Shown: positions 51,981 through 63,008, counted from the first letter of the stretch. The stretch: 64,000 nucleotides of DNA from Naegleria gruberi (GCA_000004985.1 GG738864.1); one strand, 5' to 3'. Program-made: numbers and translations. The notes: a model not told the origin generated them from the letters alone.

Positions 51981-52216
51981 TTTTTATTTGTCTTTGCAAC
52001 AACTATTGTGTATTTCTTCAAATGGAAAAGAGTAGCATCTTCATGTTACGCTCTAAAATAGTACATTCTTATTACACCAGTTATTAATATTACCATTCAT
52101 CATCAAGTTGTTTCCTCTTCTTCCTACCTTGATAACATAAGAGAACGTTACGAAAGCAAGACTTTCTAAAAAATTTTGAAGTTGAAAAAATATTCAAAAA
52201 AATTGAATTGAAAAAA

Positions 52217-55200
52217 ATGTCCACCGTCATAGCAAAGAGCCTTCAATTCAAATTTTATTCGGACGAGGATATTGAAAAATTGTCAGTTCTCGAAGTTGAT
52301 AATGCTATTACACACGATGAATTCCAAATACCTGTGCGGGGAAGTTTATATGATCCAAAGATGGGTCTTAGGGACAATGATGGACCAATGGCAAGATGCG
52401 AAACTTGTGGATTGGTGAATACATTCTGTCCTGGACACTTTGGTCATATAAGTATTCCACAACCTGTTTTTAATGTATTGTTAAAAACCGACGTAACACA
52501 AGTTATGAATTTATGTTGTCCTTTTTGCGAAAAGTTGCATATACCAAAGGAAGAAAAGACAATATTATATTTGGTTTTGAGACTCTTAGATTGTGGATTA
52601 CCTTCCGAAGCCATGGAGTTAAACGATAAACCTCTCATGTTTTTGAGAAAGTACGGAAATGAACAAGAGGAAGAACCTATGAGCGAAGAGGAAGCAGAAG
52701 AAGGTAAAAAGAAAAAGAAGAAAAAGAAGAAAAAACTTGATTTGGAAACTGAACACTACAGATTTGAAGATGATTATCAAAAGCTTGTCTCAACTACTTT
52801 AGGTCTTATCCAACAACAAATTTTAAAATACGACGTGTCGAATGAATTGGAGCTCCATTCAAAATTCTTAAATGACGAAATTGTCTTTGATTTAAAACAT
52901 CAAATCAAGGAAAAGATTATGAAGACACATGCCCATCCACCTCTTTCCAAGATTAAGACTACAGGTTGTAGAAATTGTAAAGCTGTAAGAGTTCCATTTG
53001 CTATTCTCAACAAGGATTGTGTTGCTTTGCACGAGACTACTGTTGTTAATTTTGAATTTTTGAAAGCTCTTAAGGAATGGCATGGTAAATGTATCCACAA
53101 GGATTATGCTGACAAGAGTTTATTCGATGATGTGGACCAAGTTGATACCGTTCTTAAAAAGAGAATTGAAAAGCCATTCTGTTTAGCTAATAATTTCCAC
53201 TTGATGACAACTAAAATTTTGAAGGAAACTACTTCACTTTTCTATAATTACCTTCACACTGATGAAGTAGTAGATATGCTTGACCGTGTTTATTATAATG
53301 GTATTGAAACAGCTCTCAATGAAGTTTTATTCAAGATGGATATCAACAATGAAGAAGAACATTTATTTGATCTTATTGCTGGAAGTATCCAAGATAATAG
53401 AATCAGATATATGGATTCTTATATTTTACACTCCTTTTTTGATAACAGTCCTGCTCTCATGTTTACTAAGAAGGTTTTGGTGATGCCAGTTCGTTTCAGA
53501 CCAATTTCTCCTCTTCATATTGCTGCTAAGGAAGAAGGTAAAACTATGGTTACCTACGTTAAAACTGATATTGATATTCACTACATTAACGTTTTAAAGA
53601 CAAAGAAACTTTACGAAGATATTCAAGCTAAATTGGGAACAAGTACTATCAGATCTGATAACACAGCTATTGCTGTTTTGAGAGCTCTCCAATGTTACAT
53701 TAACGATATGTTGGACAGTACAAGTAATACTTCTTCTGGGTCAAATAGATTCTACTCATCACTTCTTAAGAAGAAGAAAACATCTACTACAACTTTGAAT
53801 CGTGGTATGAAACAATTGATGGATAAAAAGGCTGGTTTAGTCAGACAATCTATGATGGGTAAGCGTGTCAACTACAGTGCTCGTACAGTTATTTTGCCTG
53901 ATGTTGCTATTGCTTGTAATGAAGTCAGTTTCCCAGCAATGTTTGCTAAGAAGATGACATTCATGGAAACTGTCACTAACTTTAATATTAACAAGATGAG
54001 AGAATTAGTTATCAATGGTGCTAAACAATATCCTGGTGCTAATCAAATCGTTAAGAGTGGTAAAACTCAATCTGATGTTTCTTCCTCAACAGCTGTTGCT
54101 CCATATACTCGTCCTCCACTTTCAATTCAACTTAATGTTGTTAAATCAAAGAAACAAAGAGTTGCTATGGCTAATCAATTGCAAGTTGGTGATGTTGTCT
54201 ATCGTCACCTCCAAGATGGAGATATGTTGTTGATGAACAGACAACCTTCATTGCACAGACCTAGTATTTTAGCTCACAGAGCTAGAGTTATTGCTAACCA
54301 ACGTGTTATGCGTCTCCACTATGCCAGTTGTAAATCTTTCAATGCTGACTTTGATGGTGACGAAATGAATGCTCACTTTGTACAAAACCCAATTGCTCAA
54401 AGCGAAGCTCGTCAATTAATGGATGCTCAATTGTCTTTCTGTACTCCTACCAGTGGTGAACCATTGCGTGGCTTAATTCAAGATCACGTTTCATCTGCTG
54501 TCTTGTTGACTATGAAAGATAACTTTTTATCTCGTGAAGATTATCAAGAAATTTTGCTCAGTGCTAACATTTTTGATGTCAATGAAGTCATTCGCTCTGA
54601 AATTCCATCCATTTTGAAACCAACACCTTTGTGGACTGGTAAGCAAGTTATTACAAGTCTTTTGAAGCATGTTGCCAAGAAGAATACTCCAGCTGGTGCT
54701 CCAGTTTTTGGTGTCAATTTGGATTGTAAGACTAAGGTTAAAGGTACTGTTTGGGGTGCTCACAACGAAGAAGGAATGGTCATTATTAGAGATAACGAAC
54801 TCTTGACTGGTATTTTTGATAAGTCTCAAGTTGGTTCTTCAAAATATGGTATTTTGCACGCTTTTGATGAATGTTATGGTAACAACGCCAGTAATATGCT
54901 CATTTCATGTTTATCAAGAATGTTAACTTTCTACTTGCATTACTTTGCCATCAGTTGTGGTATTGATGACTGTCTCCTTTCCAAGTCTGCTGAAGCTAAC
55001 CGTATTGAAACTTTGAAAAACTCCAATGAAGCATGTCATCATGCTACTGCTTCCTACTGTGGTCTCCCAAAGAAGAAGGATGCTTCACAATATGATCACG
55101 ACAAGGTTAAGGAATTTTTGGCCAAACATATGCTTAACCCAACTGTTTCTAAACAAACAGGTGAAATTATCAATGAAAAGATTGTCCGTAAATTGGATTC

Positions 55201-57484
55201 AACTGTCAAGAAGAGTATTAACAAGTTCACAACAAAGGCTATCAATGATTCTATTCCTATGGGTCAATACAAGGCTTTCCCATACAATATGCTTTCACTC
55301 ATGACTGAAACTGGTGCCAAGGGTTCTATGGTTAACTCTTCACAAATTGCTGTCTGTTTAGGTCTTCAAGAATTTGAAGGTAAACGTGTTAACGTTCAAG
55401 TTAAGAGTGGTAAGACCCTGCCATCATTCGATTCTTTCGATTCAAACAATATTGCTAACGGTTACGTTGCTAGTAGATTCTTGACTGGTATCAAGCCACA
55501 AGAATTCTTCTTCCATTGTATGGCTGGTAGAGATGGTCTGATTGATACTGCTGTCAAGACAGCTCGTAGTGGTTACTTGCAAAGATGTTTGATTAAGCAC
55601 TTGGAAGACCTTTCCGTTCAATATGATGGTACTGTCAGAAATGGAAACAAGACAGTCGTCCAATTCTCTTACGGTGGTGACCATATTGATCCAATCAAGA
55701 CTGGTTATATGACTCAATTCGATTTCATGAGAATGAACCAAGATTTACTTTCTCAAAGATATAATGAAGAATCAGCTATTCAATACACTAAGGATGTTAA
55801 GGAATGGCAAGAAAAGACTAAGAATGCCACATCTACTATTTATAAGAACGACTTTGTTCAAATCGAAGATCCATGGAATTATTTGGGTGGTGTTTCTGAT
55901 GCTTACGATAAGAAGCTCAAGAAGTACATTGAGGCAACTAAGACCACTACTTTGTCTGATACAAAGAAGAAATTCGACCCAGAACGTATCAAGACATTGG
56001 CTCATCTCAAATATCTCCGTAGTTTGGTTAACGCTAGTGATCCAGTTGGTATTATTGCTGGTCAATCTATTGGTGAACCTTCAACACAGATGACTTTGAA
56101 CACTTTCCACTTTGCTGGTTTGGATATGGCTCACGTTACAGTTGGTATTCCTAGATTGGTTGAATTGTTGATGAGAGGTACTACTCGTGTCCTCACAATG
56201 AATGTTCCAGTTAAGAAGGAATGCGCTCAATACCAAGTCGAAAAGATTTACCAATATGCTGATAGTATTTCAAAGTTGCCATTCTTCAGAGTTTTGACTA
56301 ACATGGACATTCAAGAACAATTCAAGTTCTCCGTTGACGTTAAGCGTAAACAAATTTCAGTTTCTCTCTTCTTTGATATGAAGGACATTACTGAATACTA
56401 CCAAATTTCTAATGATGTTTTTGACAAGAAGGTTCAAACTCTTCTCATCTTGTTAACAGCAAGAATTGTTTCTCCAAAGAAGCTCATGTACTCTAGAATG
56501 AAGGCAATGTTATCCAAACTTGCCAGTTTTGGTGGTACTGGTGCTGTTGCTGATGGAGCTGCACCAGCTGAGGCAGAACCTGAAGAAAACAAGGAAGCCA
56601 CACCAATGGATGCATTCATGGGTACTGATACAGCTGAAATGATGAAAGAGGATAGTGATGAATCCAATGTAAAGAAACCTAAGAAGAAGAAAAAGAAGAG
56701 TGATAGCGACGACGAAGATGAAGATAATGACGAAGATGAAGAAGAAAAGAGATCTAAGAGAAAGAAGAAGAGGGATGAAGAAGAAGAAACACAAATTAAT
56801 AATGATGAAGGCCTTTCTGGAGAAGACCTTTTCATTAAGACTTTCGGATCTGCTTTGGGTGAATATGATGAACATTCTATCAATGCTAAGGAAGGTGTTG
56901 TCACTTTCACATTTACTCAAAAATCAGATGCTGGTAAGGTTTACATTGCTGAAGGTATTCAAGATGTTTTGAAGAATTGCTTCTTACAAAGTGTTGACGG
57001 TATTGAAAACGTTACAGTTGTTCCAACTAATGATGGATACGATCTTTCAATTGAAGGTTTCAACTTTTATGCTTTGCACGCTCTTCCAATGTCCCATGAA
57101 TTGCTCGACCTCAATCGTTTGGTCACAAACAATGTCAACATTATGAACGACCATTATGGTATTGAATCAGGATACGGATTGATTGTTAAGGATGTTTCTT
57201 ACGTCTTTGACATGTACGGTATGGAAGTCAGTCCAGCTCACATTCAATTGATTGCTGATTACCTTACATATCGTGGTTACTATTCCTCATGTAACAGATT
57301 TACCATTAAGAACAGCCCTTCAACATTCTACCGATCTTCTTTCGAACAAGCTTGTCAAAATCTCTTGAAGGCTGCTGTCAGAAGCGAAACTGATACTATG
57401 GTTTCTCCAACTGCTCGTGTTGCCTTGGGTACACCTGTTAGTGTTGGTACTGGCAGTTTTGATTTGTTGCTTGTAAATAAGTAA
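52217..57484 (+). CDS. RPA1: DNA-directed RNA polymerase I largest subunit (A190/RPA1-like)
   Basis: Uninterrupted ORF of about 1755 aa from ATG 52217. It has the zinc-binding N-terminus CETCG...CPGHFGHI and the catalytic NADFDGDEMN motif. There is no heptad CTD. Lys-rich and Asp/Glu-rich insertions and the overall size fit Pol I rather than Pol II or III; that assignment is from memory of family features. Confidence 0.75.
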   Translation: MSTVIAKSLQFKFYSDEDIEKLSVLEVDNAITHDEFQIPVRGSLYDPKMGLRDNDGPMARCETCGLVNTFCPGHFGHISIPQPVFNVLLKTDVTQVMNLCCPFCEKLHIPKEEKTILYLVLRLLDCGLPSEAMELNDKPLMFLRKYGNEQEEEPMSEEEAEEGKKKKKKKKKKLDLETEHYRFEDDYQKLVSTTLGLIQQQILKYDVSNELELHSKFLNDEIVFDLKHQIKEKIMKTHAHPPLSKIKTTGCRNCKAVRVPFAILNKDCVALHETTVVNFEFLKALKEWHGKCIHKDYADKSLFDDVDQVDTVLKKRIEKPFCLANNFHLMTTKILKETTSLFYNYLHTDEVVDMLDRVYYNGIETALNEVLFKMDINNEEEHLFDLIAGSIQDNRIRYMDSYILHSFFDNSPALMFTKKVLVMPVRFRPISPLHIAAKEEGKTMVTYVKTDIDIHYINVLKTKKLYEDIQAKLGTSTIRSDNTAIAVLRALQCYINDMLDSTSNTSSGSNRFYSSLLKKKKTSTTTLNRGMKQLMDKKAGLVRQSMMGKRVNYSARTVILPDVAIACNEVSFPAMFAKKMTFMETVTNFNINKMRELVINGAKQYPGANQIVKSGKTQSDVSSSTAVAPYTRPPLSIQLNVVKSKKQRVAMANQLQVGDVVYRHLQDGDMLLMNRQPSLHRPSILAHRARVIANQRVMRLHYASCKSFNADFDGDEMNAHFVQNPIAQSEARQLMDAQLSFCTPTSGEPLRGLIQDHVSSAVLLTMKDNFLSREDYQEILLSANIFDVNEVIRSEIPSILKPTPLWTGKQVITSLLKHVAKKNTPAGAPVFGVNLDCKTKVKGTVWGAHNEEGMVIIRDNELLTGIFDKSQVGSSKYGILHAFDECYGNNASNMLISCLSRMLTFYLHYFAISCGIDDCLLSKSAEANRIETLKNSNEACHHATASYCGLPKKKDASQYDHDKVKEFLAKHMLNPTVSKQTGEIINEKIVRKLDSTVKKSINKFTTKAINDSIPMGQYKAFPYNMLSLMTETGAKGSMVNSSQIAVCLGLQEFEGKRVNVQVKSGKTLPSFDSFDSNNIANGYVASRFLTGIKPQEFFFHCMAGRDGLIDTAVKTARSGYLQRCLIKHLEDLSVQYDGTVRNGNKTVVQFSYGGDHIDPIKTGYMTQFDFMRMNQDLLSQRYNEESAIQYTKDVKEWQEKTKNATSTIYKNDFVQIEDPWNYLGGVSDAYDKKLKKYIEATKTTTLSDTKKKFDPERIKTLAHLKYLRSLVNASDPVGIIAGQSIGEPSTQMTLNTFHFAGLDMAHVTVGIPRLVELLMRGTTRVLTMNVPVKKECAQYQVEKIYQYADSISKLPFFRVLTNMDIQEQFKFSVDVKRKQISVSLFFDMKDITEYYQISNDVFDKKVQTLLILLTARIVSPKKLMYSRMKAMLSKLASFGGTGAVADGAAPAEAEPEENKEATPMDAFMGTDTAEMMKEDSDESNVKKPKKKKKKSDSDDEDEDNDEDEEEKRSKRKKKRDEEEETQINNDEGLSGEDLFIKTFGSALGEYDEHSINAKEGVVTFTFTQKSDAGKVYIAEGIQDVLKNCFLQSVDGIENVTVVPTNDGYDLSIEGFNFYALHALPMSHELLDLNRLVTNNVNIMNDHYGIESGYGLIVKDVSYVFDMYGMEVSPAHIQLIADYLTYRGYYSSCNRFTIKNSPSTFYRSSFEQACQNLLKAAVRSETDTMVSPTARVALGTPVSVGTGSFDLLLVNK

Positions 57485-57589: not shown

Positions 57590-59794
57590 TTATCTTCTTT
57601 TATAGTAACTGTTATTATTGCCACCACCATAGCTTGAGTGATAACCTCTTCTTGCACTGGTATTCACACAATCTCTCAAATACTTTGCAATAGATGAATT
57701 ATCATATAATGTACCTATTCCGACATAGTCAAAGTATTGTTTGAAAGATGAAACATTTTGAATCTTGAAAACTTCACGTTGTAACACATCTTCCAACAAT
57801 TCACCACTCTTTGTCTTTGGAGGACAGCCAAAGTTTGTATCGTACAATCTTCCAAATTCTTCCAAGGAGAGATCACTATATTCTTCAACAATGTTTCTCA
57901 AAAAGAAGACGTGGAACATGATCAATTTGCAGGAAACTTGGTTTGCTTCCCATGATTTGATACATCTTTCAGAGTCCATTTCGTTGAATCTAGCCAATCC
58001 AGGATGCATCTTGATAACCCACAATGCATTTCTAATTGAGGTTTCTTCAACAACAGAGGTCTTAATTGAGTTCCATGTTAATTTACTTGGACCCAGAACT
58101 GAAAGCTTTGGAAGGAATTCTCCAAGATTTGGACAGGAGCTCTTTAATCTAGCGCTTTCAGAGTTCTTGAATTGATTGACTTGATACTTTAAACGATCCA
58201 AAGCTTGTGGGAATTTTTCAATCAAGTAAATTAACCAACGATGGAAGTACATGTAACCGTAGAGAGCTTTGATTGAGGCATGAGTATTACCTTTCATAAT
58301 TTCAACAACCATAGTATTCATCAACTTGCACATCAATTCAATATAAATTGTTGCATTATCTAAGGATTCAGAGCTTGAAATTGAAGGATAAGCAATTTGA
58401 ATTTTCATCACTGACTGTTTCAAAATCTCAAAGTTACCATGCTTTCTGTTGATAAATACTGGGATCCAGTGAGAGAAACATCTTCCCCAGACACTCTTTC
58501 TGACATTCTCCTTATAGAAGGAAGTGTGAGAGAGAAGATCCAGAGGAGTTGAAATTGAGGCAATTGTGCCATCTTTCTTAGTTTCGAAAGATAGACCAAC
58601 ACCAAGTGTATCCTCATTAAATGTTTCCTTAGAGTGGAAACACACTAATTCTCTGGCTGTAGACAAGAATTTGTGTTCACACAAATCATAGAGATATTTG
58701 CTAGACTGTTCAACTCTCTTCAATTCAATAATATTAAGATAGCTGAGAGTGTGTAAAATCAATTCGTTAGGTAAGTCTTTGAGATGCTTCTTTGGTTCAG
58801 GAGTTTTCTTCAACATGCTTACAGCAATTAGGTTTTTGGAAGGTTGCGCAGGAGAAGCTGTTTCAATAATGGTTGATGATTCAACTGCAGACTTTTTCTT
58901 TTCCATCTTTTCTTGAACTTTCTTCAATCTGTTCAGTTTCTTTTTCTTGTTCTTTCCAATGTAGTTTGGATCCTTGGCTTCATCTTGAGATGGTTTTGGT
59001 TGTTCTTCCTTCTTGGCAACAACCTTAGTTGGATCAACATATTGAAAAGGAATATCCCAGGCATTTGTGTTGACTGGAACTGCTTTAGGTTCTGGTTTGG
59101 TTTCTACTGGTTTAGTTTCAGCTATTGTTTTAGGTTCTACAGGTTTAGTTTCAACTTTTGGTTCAACCGTCTTTGGAGTTTCTTTCTTTGGAACTGGCTT
59201 GACCACAGGTTTGTCTTTCTTTAGAACGACAGCTTTAACAGGTTGTGGAACATACTTTGAAGCAAGAATTTCTGAAACATTCCAATAAGGAGCACATGGA
59301 TATATGGTTCCCTTTGTTGGATTGTGTCCAGTTGTGGAATTAACATATTTCCTGGAAGCGTCAATATCACTCTGTATATATCTTTCCTGTCTATCCTCTT
59401 CTTCCAATAAGAATGATTGTAATTGCAACAAGATTGACAAACAAGAGTAACTTGTACTCCAACCCATGTATGGAATATCGTCAAAATAGTGAGCTTTCAA
59501 CATGTCCAAGCAGATCCACCCACCAAAAACGTGAGAGTGATGCAATTGAGTAAGGCAAGCAATTTGTGGAGGTTCATTAGGATAATCCTTTGGAAACTTG
59601 ATATCCAATACAACAATAATTCCATGATACTTGGATGTCTTTGGAGCTAACACAGTTGCATACCAATGAAACATGTCTCCTTGAAATGGCTCAGCATAGA
59701 CAGTTTCTAATGGATTCGATTGAATTTCCTTCAAGTCTCTCGTTATTCTTTTGAGAGCAGAAGAAGGGAGAGCCTTCGAGCTGCTGCTATTCAT
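57590..59794 (-). CDS. Ubiquitin-conjugating (UBC/E2) domain protein fused to an F-box-like motif and a large C-terminal region
   Basis: 734-aa ORF. The N-terminal UBC fold is LKRITRDLKEIQSNPL...FPKDYPNEPPQI...HHSHVFGGWICLDML, with the active-site Cys context retained and HPN replaced by HSH. A P/K/E/V-rich linker follows, then LPNELILHTLSYLNIIELKRVEQSSKYLYDL (F-box-like). Confidence 0.65.
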   Translation of the reverse strand: MNSSSSKALPSSALKRITRDLKEIQSNPLETVYAEPFQGDMFHWYATVLAPKTSKYHGIIVVLDIKFPKDYPNEPPQIACLTQLHHSHVFGGWICLDMLKAHYFDDIPYMGWSTSYSCLSILLQLQSFLLEEEDRQERYIQSDIDASRKYVNSTTGHNPTKGTIYPCAPYWNVSEILASKYVPQPVKAVVLKKDKPVVKPVPKKETPKTVEPKVETKPVEPKTIAETKPVETKPEPKAVPVNTNAWDIPFQYVDPTKVVAKKEEQPKPSQDEAKDPNYIGKNKKKKLNRLKKVQEKMEKKKSAVESSTIIETASPAQPSKNLIAVSMLKKTPEPKKHLKDLPNELILHTLSYLNIIELKRVEQSSKYLYDLCEHKFLSTARELVCFHSKETFNEDTLGVGLSFETKKDGTIASISTPLDLLSHTSFYKENVRKSVWGRCFSHWIPVFINRKHGNFEILKQSVMKIQIAYPSISSSESLDNATIYIELMCKLMNTMVVEIMKGNTHASIKALYGYMYFHRWLIYLIEKFPQALDRLKYQVNQFKNSESARLKSSCPNLGEFLPKLSVLGPSKLTWNSIKTSVVEETSIRNALWVIKMHPGLARFNEMDSERCIKSWEANQVSCKLIMFHVFFLRNIVEEYSDLSLEEFGRLYDTNFGCPPKTKSGELLEDVLQREVFKIQNVSSFKQYFDYVGIGTLYDNSSIAKYLRDCVNTSARRGYHSSYGGGNNNSYYKRR

Positions 59795-60501: not shown

Positions 60502-62417
60502 ATGAAACAATCACTCTTGCTAGTTGTTGCTGTTTGTTCCGTGATGGCAATGTTATTGTCATCATTGGCCGTGGCACAAACTGAAAAGGATCATCTCGTT
60601 ACAACTCTCCCTGGTTATAAGGTATGTTTGTTTTATTGCATGGATGCTGATATGCTGAACCATTGACAATAATGCACGGGCAAATTATTCACAAATATTC
60701 ACTCTTGTATGAATTTTAATAATAATTAATAATATAGGATGGTAGAACACCACTTCCATTCAAATCATATACTGGTTATTTATTGGCAAATCAAACTAGA
60801 GGCCATTACTTGTTTTATTGGTTTTTTGAAGCTCAAACAAATAGTGACACAGCTCCTCTTGTTTTCTGGACAAATGGTGGACCAGGTTAGTAGTATAATC
60901 TGTTGTGGCATTCAATATTTTCTATGAAAATCATGCAATTTTTTTATGATATGGAACTATACAGGCTGTTCAAGTCTTGGAGGAGAAGCCAGTGAACGTA
61001 TGTATTTAAAAGTTATTATCAATTGAGGATCATTTAATATTATATAGATGGATTTTTACTTGTCAATGCTGATGGTGCTACTTTGAGAGAAAATCCATAC
61101 AGTTGGAATAGAAAGGCCAATATGTTGTACATTGAACAACCTATTGGTGTTGGTTTCAGTTATTCAAATCATACTTCTGATTATGGAGTTGTCAATGATG
61201 TGATGGCTGCTTCTGATATGGCTAATGCTTACAGAGATTTCATTAAGAGATTCCCAAAGTTTTTGAATAGAGATGTTTATTTGTCAGGTGAAGTAAGTAT
61301 ATTCACACATTGAATGAGATTGAATTTCTTACCAAATAATAGTCTTATGGAGGAGTTTATGTTCCAACTACTGCAGCTGAAATTATTCAAGGAAACCAAA
61401 ATGGACAAGTCCCATACATTAATTTGAAGGGTATTTTAGTCGGAAATGGTGTTACAGGTATGTTTACTGAAATGTTAAATTCCATAACAATTATTTCTAG
61501 ATGCTGAGGCTGACGCAAATAGCATTCCACCAATGATGAAATATCACAGTTTGATCTCTATCAAGTATTACGAGCAAGGTTTTGCTGCATGCAAGGGTGA
61601 TTTCTTTAACAATCAAAATGTTCCAGCTTGTGCTCAATTTTTGGACCAAAGTAACAATGTCATGGGTAATATTAACCCATACTACATTTATGACAGCTGT
61701 CCATGGTTGGGTATTACTTCTCAAAAAGCCAAGATTTCATTCCAAGAAAAGAAATTCAATGTTTTGAATGAACAAGGAAAGAAAGTCGATGTTCATCCAC
61801 TTTTCCAAATGTACAAACATGGTGGTTGGTCAAAGAGAGTTGCATTGCAATCAAATTCTAAGGTTAGAATGGAGTCTGACAGTCCATGTGTTCCAAATCA
61901 ATCCATTGCTAAATATTTCAAGAGATTGGATGTCCAAAAAGCCCTTGGTATTCAACACGGAACTGTTGATCCAAATGGTTGGGATATCTGTACCAATGCC
62001 ATTAATTATACTCAAGTTTATCCAAGTATTCTTCCATTCTATACAAAGTTGTTGCAACACATTAGAATTCTTGTTTTCTCTGGTGATGTAGACATGGTAA
62101 GTTCTCCATATTTCTAATTGTTTTTAATAATTACTAATTTTAATATTTTAATTCCATAGGTTGTTAACTCTTACGGAACTCAAGCTGCTATTGATAAATT
62201 GCAATTGCAAGAAACTTCATCTTGGAGAACTTGGGAACATGAAACAGTTACTGGAACAGTTGTTGGAGGATATATCAGAAAGTTTGGACCAGGCGGAAAG
62301 AATGGACAAGGATTGACCTTTATTACCATTAGAGGCGGTTCTCACATGGTTCCTATGGTGAAACCAGAAGCTGCTCTCACCTACTTTACTAAATTCTTGG
62401 ATGGTGATTGTTGTTAA
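60502..62417 (+). CDS. Serine carboxypeptidase (S10 family), 7 exons; one extra base in exon 2
   Basis: Exons are 60502-60621, 60737-60885, 60965-60997, 61048-61292, 61343-61457, 61501-62096 and 62160-62417, all GT-AG. A signal peptide is present. Family motifs are WTNGGPGCSS, G-E|S-Y-G-G (split by an intron), FSGDVDM and GGSHMVP. The frame breaks at the TTTT run at 60778-60781. Confidence 0.8.
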
Positions 62418-62432
62418 ATAAAGTTAAACATT

Positions 62433-63008
62433 TTATTGAGATGATTCATTTGGATTCTTTAAATATTTAATAACCTTACAAGGATTTCCAGCAGCAACAA
62501 CATATGGAGGAATATCCTTAGTGACAACAGAACCAGCTCCAATAGTTGTTCCCTTTCCAATCTTAACTCCTGGAAGAATAATTGCAGCTCCACCAATCCA
62601 AACATCATCTCCAATCTCAATTGGTTTTGCATATTCCAATCCAGATTTTCTCTCCTCTGGATCCACTGGATGAGTTGCAGTATATACATTTACATTAGGT
62701 CCAAATAAAACATTATTTCCAATTCTAATTTCACACACATCCAACATGACACATCCAAAATTAGCAAAAAATGATTTTCCATAATGAATATTATATCCAT
62801 AATCACATCTAAATGTTGGTTCTAGAAAACTTCCCTCACCATGAGTTCCCATCAATTCTTTCAAAATTCCATCCATTACCTTCTTATCTTGTTCATTATT
62901 ATAGAGATGAACGAGTTGACGAGCTTTGGCTCTCTCTTGAACTAGCTGTTCATCCATGGCATTGTAGAGCTCTCCAGCGAGCATTTTCTCCTTTTCACTT
63001 CTTTGCAT
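62433..63008 (-). CDS. Maltose/galactoside O-acetyltransferase-like (left-handed beta-helix hexapeptide transferase)
   Basis: Intronless 191-aa ORF. The Maa/LacA-type N-terminus is MLAGELYNAMDEQLVQERAKARQL, and hexapeptide repeats follow (IGNNVLFGPNVNVY...IGDDVWIGGAAIILPGVKIGKGTTIGAGSVV). Confidence 0.8.
   Translation of the reverse strand: MQRSEKEKMLAGELYNAMDEQLVQERAKARQLVHLYNNEQDKKVMDGILKELMGTHGEGSFLEPTFRCDYGYNIHYGKSFFANFGCVMLDVCEIRIGNNVLFGPNVNVYTATHPVDPEERKSGLEYAKPIEIGDDVWIGGAAIILPGVKIGKGTTIGAGSVVTKDIPPYVVAAGNPCKVIKYLKNPNESSQ

Follow-up and report, generated by a model that had tools for sequence, protein, structure and literature searches.

An E2–F-box protein of Naegleria gruberi with a predicted UBR4-like E3 module, a candidate single-chain E2–E3 enzyme

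Introduction

A gene on the minus strand of a 64,000-nucleotide stretch of Naegleria gruberi DNA (GCA_000004985.1 GG738864.1, the whole of which is referred to as the window) encodes a 734-residue protein that carries, on one chain, a ubiquitin-conjugating (UBC, or E2) domain, an F-box and a C-terminal domain whose predicted fold resembles the E2-binding E3 module of UBR4. Named members of its family are found in at least four major protist lineages. The reading that we favour, which stands about an even chance of being right, is that of a single-chain E2–E3 enzyme, in which the C-terminal module would engage the ubiquitin-charged UBC domain (UBC~Ub) of its own chain and the F-box would anchor the unit to Skp1. 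It is favoured mainly because the C-terminal domain has a single structural relative, a module that binds and activates an E2, and because it nearly always follows a UBC domain on the same chain.

E2 and E3 activities normally reside on separate proteins, and in the textbook SCF (Skp1–cullin–F-box) ligase Skp1 and a cullin are combined with an F-box protein and a RING protein, the E2 being a free one. The initial annotation of the window had proposed that an E2 able to dock on Skp1 would short-circuit the RING step of this arrangement. The proposal was incomplete, as the region that it left unassigned is a predicted E3 module of the hemiRING-UZI type; therefore the protein seems to supply a module for E2 binding and activation itself, and not to dispense with one.

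Domain organisation of the protein

The gene and the features of its product are the following, in window coordinates.

57590..59794, minus strand: whole gene, single exon, ATG start, 734 codons and stop, uninterrupted open reading frame (ORF) of 2205 nucleotides
59255..59764, minus strand: UBC (E2) domain with a family-specific C-terminal appendage, residues 11-180
59531..59539, minus strand: triad His86-Ser87-His88, replacing the canonical HPN
59510..59512, minus strand: catalytic Cys95, in the motif WICLDML
59255-59347, minus strand: C-terminal appendage of the UBC domain, residues 150-180, well-ordered
58781..59254, minus strand: disordered linker rich in K, P, V and E, residues 181-338, with a predicted local distance difference test score (pLDDT) <50
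58889-58954, minus strand: Lys-rich predicted helix KNKKKKLNRLKKVQEKMEKKK within the linker, residues 281-302
58664..58780, minus strand: F-box, residues 339-377, KDLPNELILHTLSYLNIIELKRVEQSSKYLYDLCEHKFL
58436..58663, minus strand: beta-rich N-terminal subdomain of the C-terminal domain, residues 378-453, holding the invariant Cys385 and sitting where UBR4 has its hemiRING
57632..58435, minus strand: UZI-like helical bundle of the C-terminal domain, residues 454-721
57590..57631, minus strand: short disordered G/N/Y/R tail, residues 722-734, and stop codon

The initial annotation had described a UBC domain with its active-site Cys at the N-terminus, a triad reading HSH, a linker rich in Pro, Lys and Glu, an F-box-like motif and an unassigned region of about 370 residues, all fused in one gene, and this outline is borne out in every part by the results given below. 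From end to end the ORF translation shows 100% identity to a protein annotated in N. gruberi, on a 442-kb contig, as 'ubiquitin-conjugating enzyme family protein', for which the domains PF00179 and PF12937 had been precomputed. A tandem-repeat scan of the gene gave nothing beyond trivial short repeats. Apart from the long low-complexity linker, nothing was found that would point to a gene-model or assembly artefact joining two genes, and this explanation is extremely improbable: the 2205-nucleotide frame is continuous and free of stops, and at least 55 relatives, drawn from independent genomes, have the same domain order, which is also found in complete ORFs on single Trinity transcripts that hold the UBC domain, the F-box and the C-terminal domain together (Cavostelium P0011, Pellita P0027, Pyxidicula P0029 and Protostelium P0039). 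A split into two genes is therefore very unlikely.

Predicted fold and conservation of the C-terminal domain

The region that had been left unassigned is real and contains the best-conserved part of the protein in the family alignment, residues 378-721 (about 345 residues). Pfam searches returned nothing at E≤10 for residues 380-734, with the whole protein or with 16 isolated C-terminal domains. A model of the domain was obtained with AlphaFold2, run on a 16-sequence alignment and with no templates, and this model was confident, with a mean pLDDT of 90.1 and a predicted template modelling score (pTM) of 0.89. It begins with a small beta-rich subdomain (about 75 residues), behind which about a dozen helices form a bundle.

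Comparison with Foldseek, in which AlphaFold-database neighbours were not included, gave the structure 8b5w ('E3 module from UBR4') as the sole significant match (E 8.4e-6, probability 1.00, template modelling score (TM) 0.61 in both directions), the next match having an E of 0.16 and a TM <0.25. Ubr1 was the second structural match of the domain, because UZI-like folds are otherwise known in UBR1-3, the only proteins in which the authors of the UBR4 module found them (PMC10873205). In the UBR4 module, which was described in 2024, a single-zinc hemiRING docks UBE2A/B, and an 11-helix UZI subdomain extends to the C-terminus and modestly activates E2~Ub (PMC10873205). Structures exist of the E3 module (8B5W) and of its complex with UBE2A (8BTL), the zinc ligands being Cys4838, Cys4841, His4887 and Cys4890. 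The overall fold of that module, namely a RING-like subdomain packed on a UZI bundle, is present in the predicted model of the Naegleria domain, the sequence identity to the UBR4 module being 11-13%.

Conservation was determined over 136 sequences. Five residues were found to be 100% conserved (Cys385, Gly398, Pro445, Glu584 and Arg588) and seven others 99% conserved (Ser507, Lys551, Gly558, Trp574, Trp592, Phe631 and Tyr718), with lower values for His452 (96%), His719 (91%) and His387 (71%). Cys385 (58640-58642, minus strand), which stands at the very start of the subdomain replacing the hemiRING, is the sole conserved cysteine of the domain. Its role could be that of a residual metal ligand, or else structural or catalytic, and there may be an alternative metal site formed by Cys385, His387, His452 and His719.

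A catalytic role for Cys385 would make the protein a cysteine-dependent E3, in which the invariant cysteine takes ubiquitin from Cys95 of the UBC domain in a natural single-chain E2-to-E3 thioester relay, linked to Skp1 by the F-box. We give this only a small chance of being correct; if it were true, the family would represent a ligase class of its own, apparently widespread in protists.

Two candidate sites were rejected. A zinc site of the C2HC type equivalent to that of UBR4 was discarded on conservation. A papain-like triad Cys385/Asp419/His505, for which there was a hint in a 17-sequence alignment, was dropped, since His505 and Asp419 are conserved in 69% and 89% of the 136 sequences and the fold is not that of a peptidase.

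The UBC domain and its catalytic site

The Pfam model UQ_con (PF00179) matched residues 16-134 of the N-terminal domain, which has a UBC fold, with 76.2 bits against a cutoff of 27. Among PDB sequences the closest solved relatives are UBE2D1-3 (E ~2e-20), and in structure the domain is nearer to UBE2J2 and UBE2D2; on its UBC domain the protein does not belong to the UBE2O/BIRC6/UBE2Z clade. The active-site stretch reads HSHVFGGWIC. The Asn of the HPN triad is important in canonical E2s for isopeptide formation. The catalytic residues were followed across the family by a census of hidden Markov model (HMM) columns in 106 UBC domains. In 95% of them the catalytic column holds Cys. The first position of the triad is His in 88%, and at the third Asn (53%) and His (39%) predominate. 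HPN (47/106) is the most frequent triad, followed by HPH (9) and HSH (8). Helix alpha-2 (SILLQLQSF) and the loop GWSxxY are near-invariant across the family.

Since H-x-H recurs in 39% of the family and is kept across Heterolobosea, HSH appears to be a selected variant and not a product of decay, and a triad with His in place of Asn may be competent. The same data bear on the possibility that the domain is a pseudo-E2, catalytically impaired by HSH for HPN and serving as a UEV-like module for the binding of ubiquitin or of an E3. The exchange of the triad Asn for His is in keeping with such a role, as is the presence of Val62 where 97% of the family has His; nevertheless we consider it very unlikely, as the catalytic Cys is kept in the window protein as well as in nearly all of the family, the conservation of H-x-H speaks of selection, and canonical HPN is found in nearly half of the relatives.

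Val62 itself (59609-59611, minus strand) occupies a beta-strand position and represents a lineage-specific change. Behind the UBC core, 67 of 99 family members carry the zinc-knuckle-like motif F-x-C-x(1-2)-C-x-H...WP; in the appendage of the Naegleria clade both cysteines have been lost, and His157 and Pro166 are retained. One metagenomic relative of 1173 residues (P0013) has Ser for the catalytic Cys, in the motif SISMD, together with a C-terminal TerD domain.

The linker and the F-box

The composition of the linker (K 35, P 22, V 19 and E 15 of the 156 residues 180-335) agrees with the initial description. Its Lys-rich helix, which is conserved in the relatives P0002 and P0005, has the appearance of a nuclear localisation signal or of a charged helix for interactions.

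The F-box was recognised by the Pfam F-box-like model PF12937 at residues 339-375 (E 6.7e-6, 26.2 bits against a cutoff of 24.3), the model PF00646 falling just under its threshold (19.6 bits, cutoff 20.5); in relatives the Pfam F-box E values go down to 5.8e-12. As an independent check, a profile built from the F-box segment of 17 family members only was run against all PDB sequences. It matched 39 distinct sequences at E≤0.01, all of them from proteins that are named as F-box proteins or are known to carry an F-box; FBXW7 (1.2e-9), FBXL5 (2.6e-9) and SKP2 (5.9e-9) head the list, with FBXL3, cyclin F, beta-TrCP and TIR1 further down. As the profile matches F-box proteins exclusively, the F-box is genuine and not a chance resemblance. 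Many of the solved F-box proteins matched have been structurally characterised with Skp1, which the Naegleria F-box may bind too. AlphaFold2 predicted three helices in the segment, at residues 343-350, 355-364 and 366-372, but with a low pLDDT of 46-62.

In the family the F-box always precedes the C-terminal domain, with gaps that are mostly of about 1-11 or 32-37 residues and only a few of intermediate length. In UBR4 a helical, uncharacterised region just N-terminal of the hemiRING raises the affinity for UBE2A and may contact the backside of the E2 (PMC10873205, PMC11668491). The F-box segment, which abuts the C-terminal domain, holds the same relative position, and one may ask whether its helices, although derived from an F-box, bind no Skp1 and act instead as the counterpart of that region, i.e., as an intramolecular element of E2 affinity. 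We think this distinctly improbable, given that the full F-box signature has been kept, with SKP2 and FBXW7 matched at about 1e-9, and that half the family works without the segment.

Family size, architectures and taxonomy

From 1.84 billion representative proteins a profile of the C-terminal domain alone retrieved 2790 (representatives at 50% identity) at E≤1e-3 and 1011 at E≤1e-30. The C-terminal domain is thus a large family with no matching model in the Pfam copy searched, and it now gains a predicted structure and a plausible, model-based function. For the census of architectures, HMMs of the three modules were made from the family alignment and 170 family proteins were scanned, with the following result.

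UBC, F-box and C-terminal domain: 55/170
UBC and C-terminal domain: 58/170
F-box and C-terminal domain: 10/170
C-terminal domain only: 47/170

Many of the domain-only cases lie on contigs of 1-3 kb and are therefore probably fragments. A UBC domain lies N-terminal to the C-terminal domain in 113 of the 170 proteins, and every architecture which bears a UBC domain has that order. UBC and C-terminal domain form the constant pair of the family, the F-box being present in only about half of the members. The spacer that separates the C-terminal domain from the UBC core measures 54 to 885 residues; it is as short as 54-78 residues in 13 members without an F-box, in which the two are nearly contiguous.

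Of 65 representatives scanned with Pfam, 43 had a match to UQ_con and 23 one to F-box-like, and extra domains (TerD, CCCH, LRR, RRM, S1, VWA and ankyrin) were scattered among them, TerD occurring in seven; SPRY was found in one relative. The occurrence of F-box-less members with LRR, CCCH, RRM, S1, VWA, TerD, SPRY or ankyrin domains fits a constant core of UBC and C-terminal domain to which interchangeable targeting modules are added.

These counts are also relevant to a conventional alternative, along the lines of the initial annotation, in which the protein would serve as a substrate receptor of a canonical SCF and have its E2 built in. The F-box would then sit on Skp1-Cul1-Rbx1, the C-terminal domain would bind the substrate, and the RING of Rbx1 would activate the tethered UBC domain with no E2 diffusion step. 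A genuine F-box directly N-terminal to a folded C-terminal domain is just what ordinary F-box proteins have, and proteins with an F-box and the C-terminal domain and no UBC exist. The proposal is unlikely all the same, because the one structure to which the C-terminal domain is related belongs to an E2-binding E3 module and not to a substrate receptor, and because the conserved pair occurs without an F-box in about half of the family and hence needs no SCF.

The order UBC, F-box and C-terminal domain was found by homology search in a second N. gruberi paralogue, in N. lovaniensis, N. fowleri, Willaertia magna and Acrasis kona, and in metagenomic and transcriptomic proteins. The named members from Heterolobosea belong to Naegleria, Willaertia, Acrasis and Percolomonas, and those from Amoebozoa to Acanthamoeba, Arcella, Pellita, Pyxidicula, Protostelium, Cavostelium and Soliformovum; the other named members are from the diatom Seminavis robusta and from Anaeramoeba ignava. 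No animal, fungal or plant protein was present among the named matches, i.e., 30 clusters looked up by name and the names printed by the searches.

The initial annotation had held the architecture to be undescribed. This agrees with the literature searched, where no description of a UBC–F-box or UBC–UZI fusion was found, a prior mention in the E2 survey of Burroughs et al. 2008 being possible; the modules are known ones (E2, F-box and UBR-type E3 module) and it is their combination that is undescribed there. The architecture is, however, not rare, and both the UBC domain and the F-box have already been tagged in databases.

Proposed mechanism

In the single-chain E2–E3 enzyme that we favour, E1 would charge Cys95 of the UBC domain with ubiquitin. 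The C-terminal module would then bind the UBC~Ub of its own chain in cis, across the flexible linker, and would position or activate it, in the same manner as the UBR4 module acts in trans with UBE2A. The F-box would tether this E2–E3 unit to Skp1, with or without cullin-1, and Skp1 would supply localisation, partners or substrates. The protein would in this way work like UBE2A fused to the UBR4 E3 module. It shares with that module the predicted fold and not the zinc ligands or a detectable sequence homology, and its membership is to that extent undemonstrated. The full-length model has a pTM of 0.59 with 27% of the residues disordered, which is above what the C-terminal domain alone could give and is a weak, indirect hint of a defined arrangement of the UBC and C-terminal domains.

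Several observations tell against this mechanism and have to be set beside it. HMMER profiles of 16 and of 36 diverse C-terminal domains, run against all PDB sequences, did not retrieve 8B5W or 8BTL at E≤10 and gave only noise (E >0.1). The C2HC zinc ligands of UBR4 (C-x2-C...H-x2-C) are not conserved, and there is no C-x2-C motif, therefore the E2-docking surface may differ from that of UBR4. In the window protein the triad Asn is replaced by His88, and the F-box helices were modelled with low confidence. Finally, proteins composed of F-box and C-terminal domain with no UBC occur, e.g., N. fowleri P0019, from which it follows that the C-terminal domain can function without an E2 in cis.

The mechanism rests on structure prediction and on the statistics of architectures, and the system is compact enough for direct testing. 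If the mechanism is true, the protein offers a natural and compact model (about 500 ordered residues) for the activation of an E2 by the recently discovered hemiRING-UZI module of UBR4, the UZI fold gains an evolutionary history outside the UBR proteins, and a hitherto unrecognised connection of an E2 to Skp1-based complexes comes to light.

Comparison with known systems

UBR4 is the closest point of reference for the C-terminal domain, and the differences are considerable. It recruits its E2 in trans, whereas in the Naegleria protein the E2 is fused in cis; it is a protein of about 5200 residues and 574 kDa, compared to 734 residues with an F-box ahead of the module; and it has a set of C2HC zinc ligands where the Naegleria family has a single invariant Cys. 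The likeness to UBE2O and BIRC6 is one of concept only, in that a UBC domain lies within a larger chain which supplies E3-like functions and one chain does both jobs.

With canonical F-box proteins such as SKP2, FBXW7 and FBXL5 the protein shares a homologous F-box (E ~1e-9) placed directly N-terminal to a folded C-terminal domain. Those proteins carry WD40, LRR or other substrate-binding domains and rely on Rbx1 and a free E2, whereas the Naegleria protein has its own E2 and a predicted E3 module. Engineered E2–RING fusions of structural biology (UbcH5-RING1B, RNF168-UBE2D3 and UbcH5B-MIB1 RING3), of which the PDB contains many and which appeared among the PDB matches, have in common with it an E2 covalently tethered to an E2-binding E3 module, by which a weak complex is stabilised, and the protist family looks like their natural counterpart. 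The engineered proteins are artificial and have short linkers and canonical zinc RINGs; the Naegleria family, in contrast, is natural and conserved and has a predicted zinc-poor, hemiRING-like subdomain. In the survey of Grau-Bove et al. 2015, E2 families were reported to use exclusive accessory domains, with few links to other nodes of the ubiquitin network.

Genomic setting

The G+C content of the window is about 33%, and the genes neighbouring the UBC gene encode an Rpb1-family RNA polymerase large subunit, a serine carboxypeptidase and a hexapeptide acetyltransferase, a setting in keeping with the chromosome of a eukaryotic protist. The UBC gene is convergent with the Rpb1-family gene, the stop codons being 105 bp apart. 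At least three full paralogues are present in N. gruberi, NAEGRDRAFT_59412 and NAEGRDRAFT_65426 among them. A 233-residue N. gruberi fragment on a 3.7-kb contig (P0088, NAEGRDRAFT_76881) shows 80% identity to the C-terminal domain of the window protein and is either a recent paralogue or an unassembled duplicate.

The Rpb1-family ORF (52208-57484, plus strand) has 1758 codons and contains Rpb1 domains 1-5 with acidic and Lys-rich insertions; a heptad-repeat tail is not visible in its translation. It is probably the largest subunit of RNA polymerase I, and the TTG listed as its start is probably not the true one. The serine carboxypeptidase (Peptidase_S10) gene, at 61083-62417 on the plus strand, is spread across several ORFs, which implies introns, whereas the gene studied here is intronless. 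The last of the neighbours (62433-63008, minus strand) encodes a 191-residue maltose/galactoside O-acetyltransferase-like protein with a Mac cap and hexapeptide repeats. As this family is mostly bacterial, the gene is possibly the result of an old lateral transfer.

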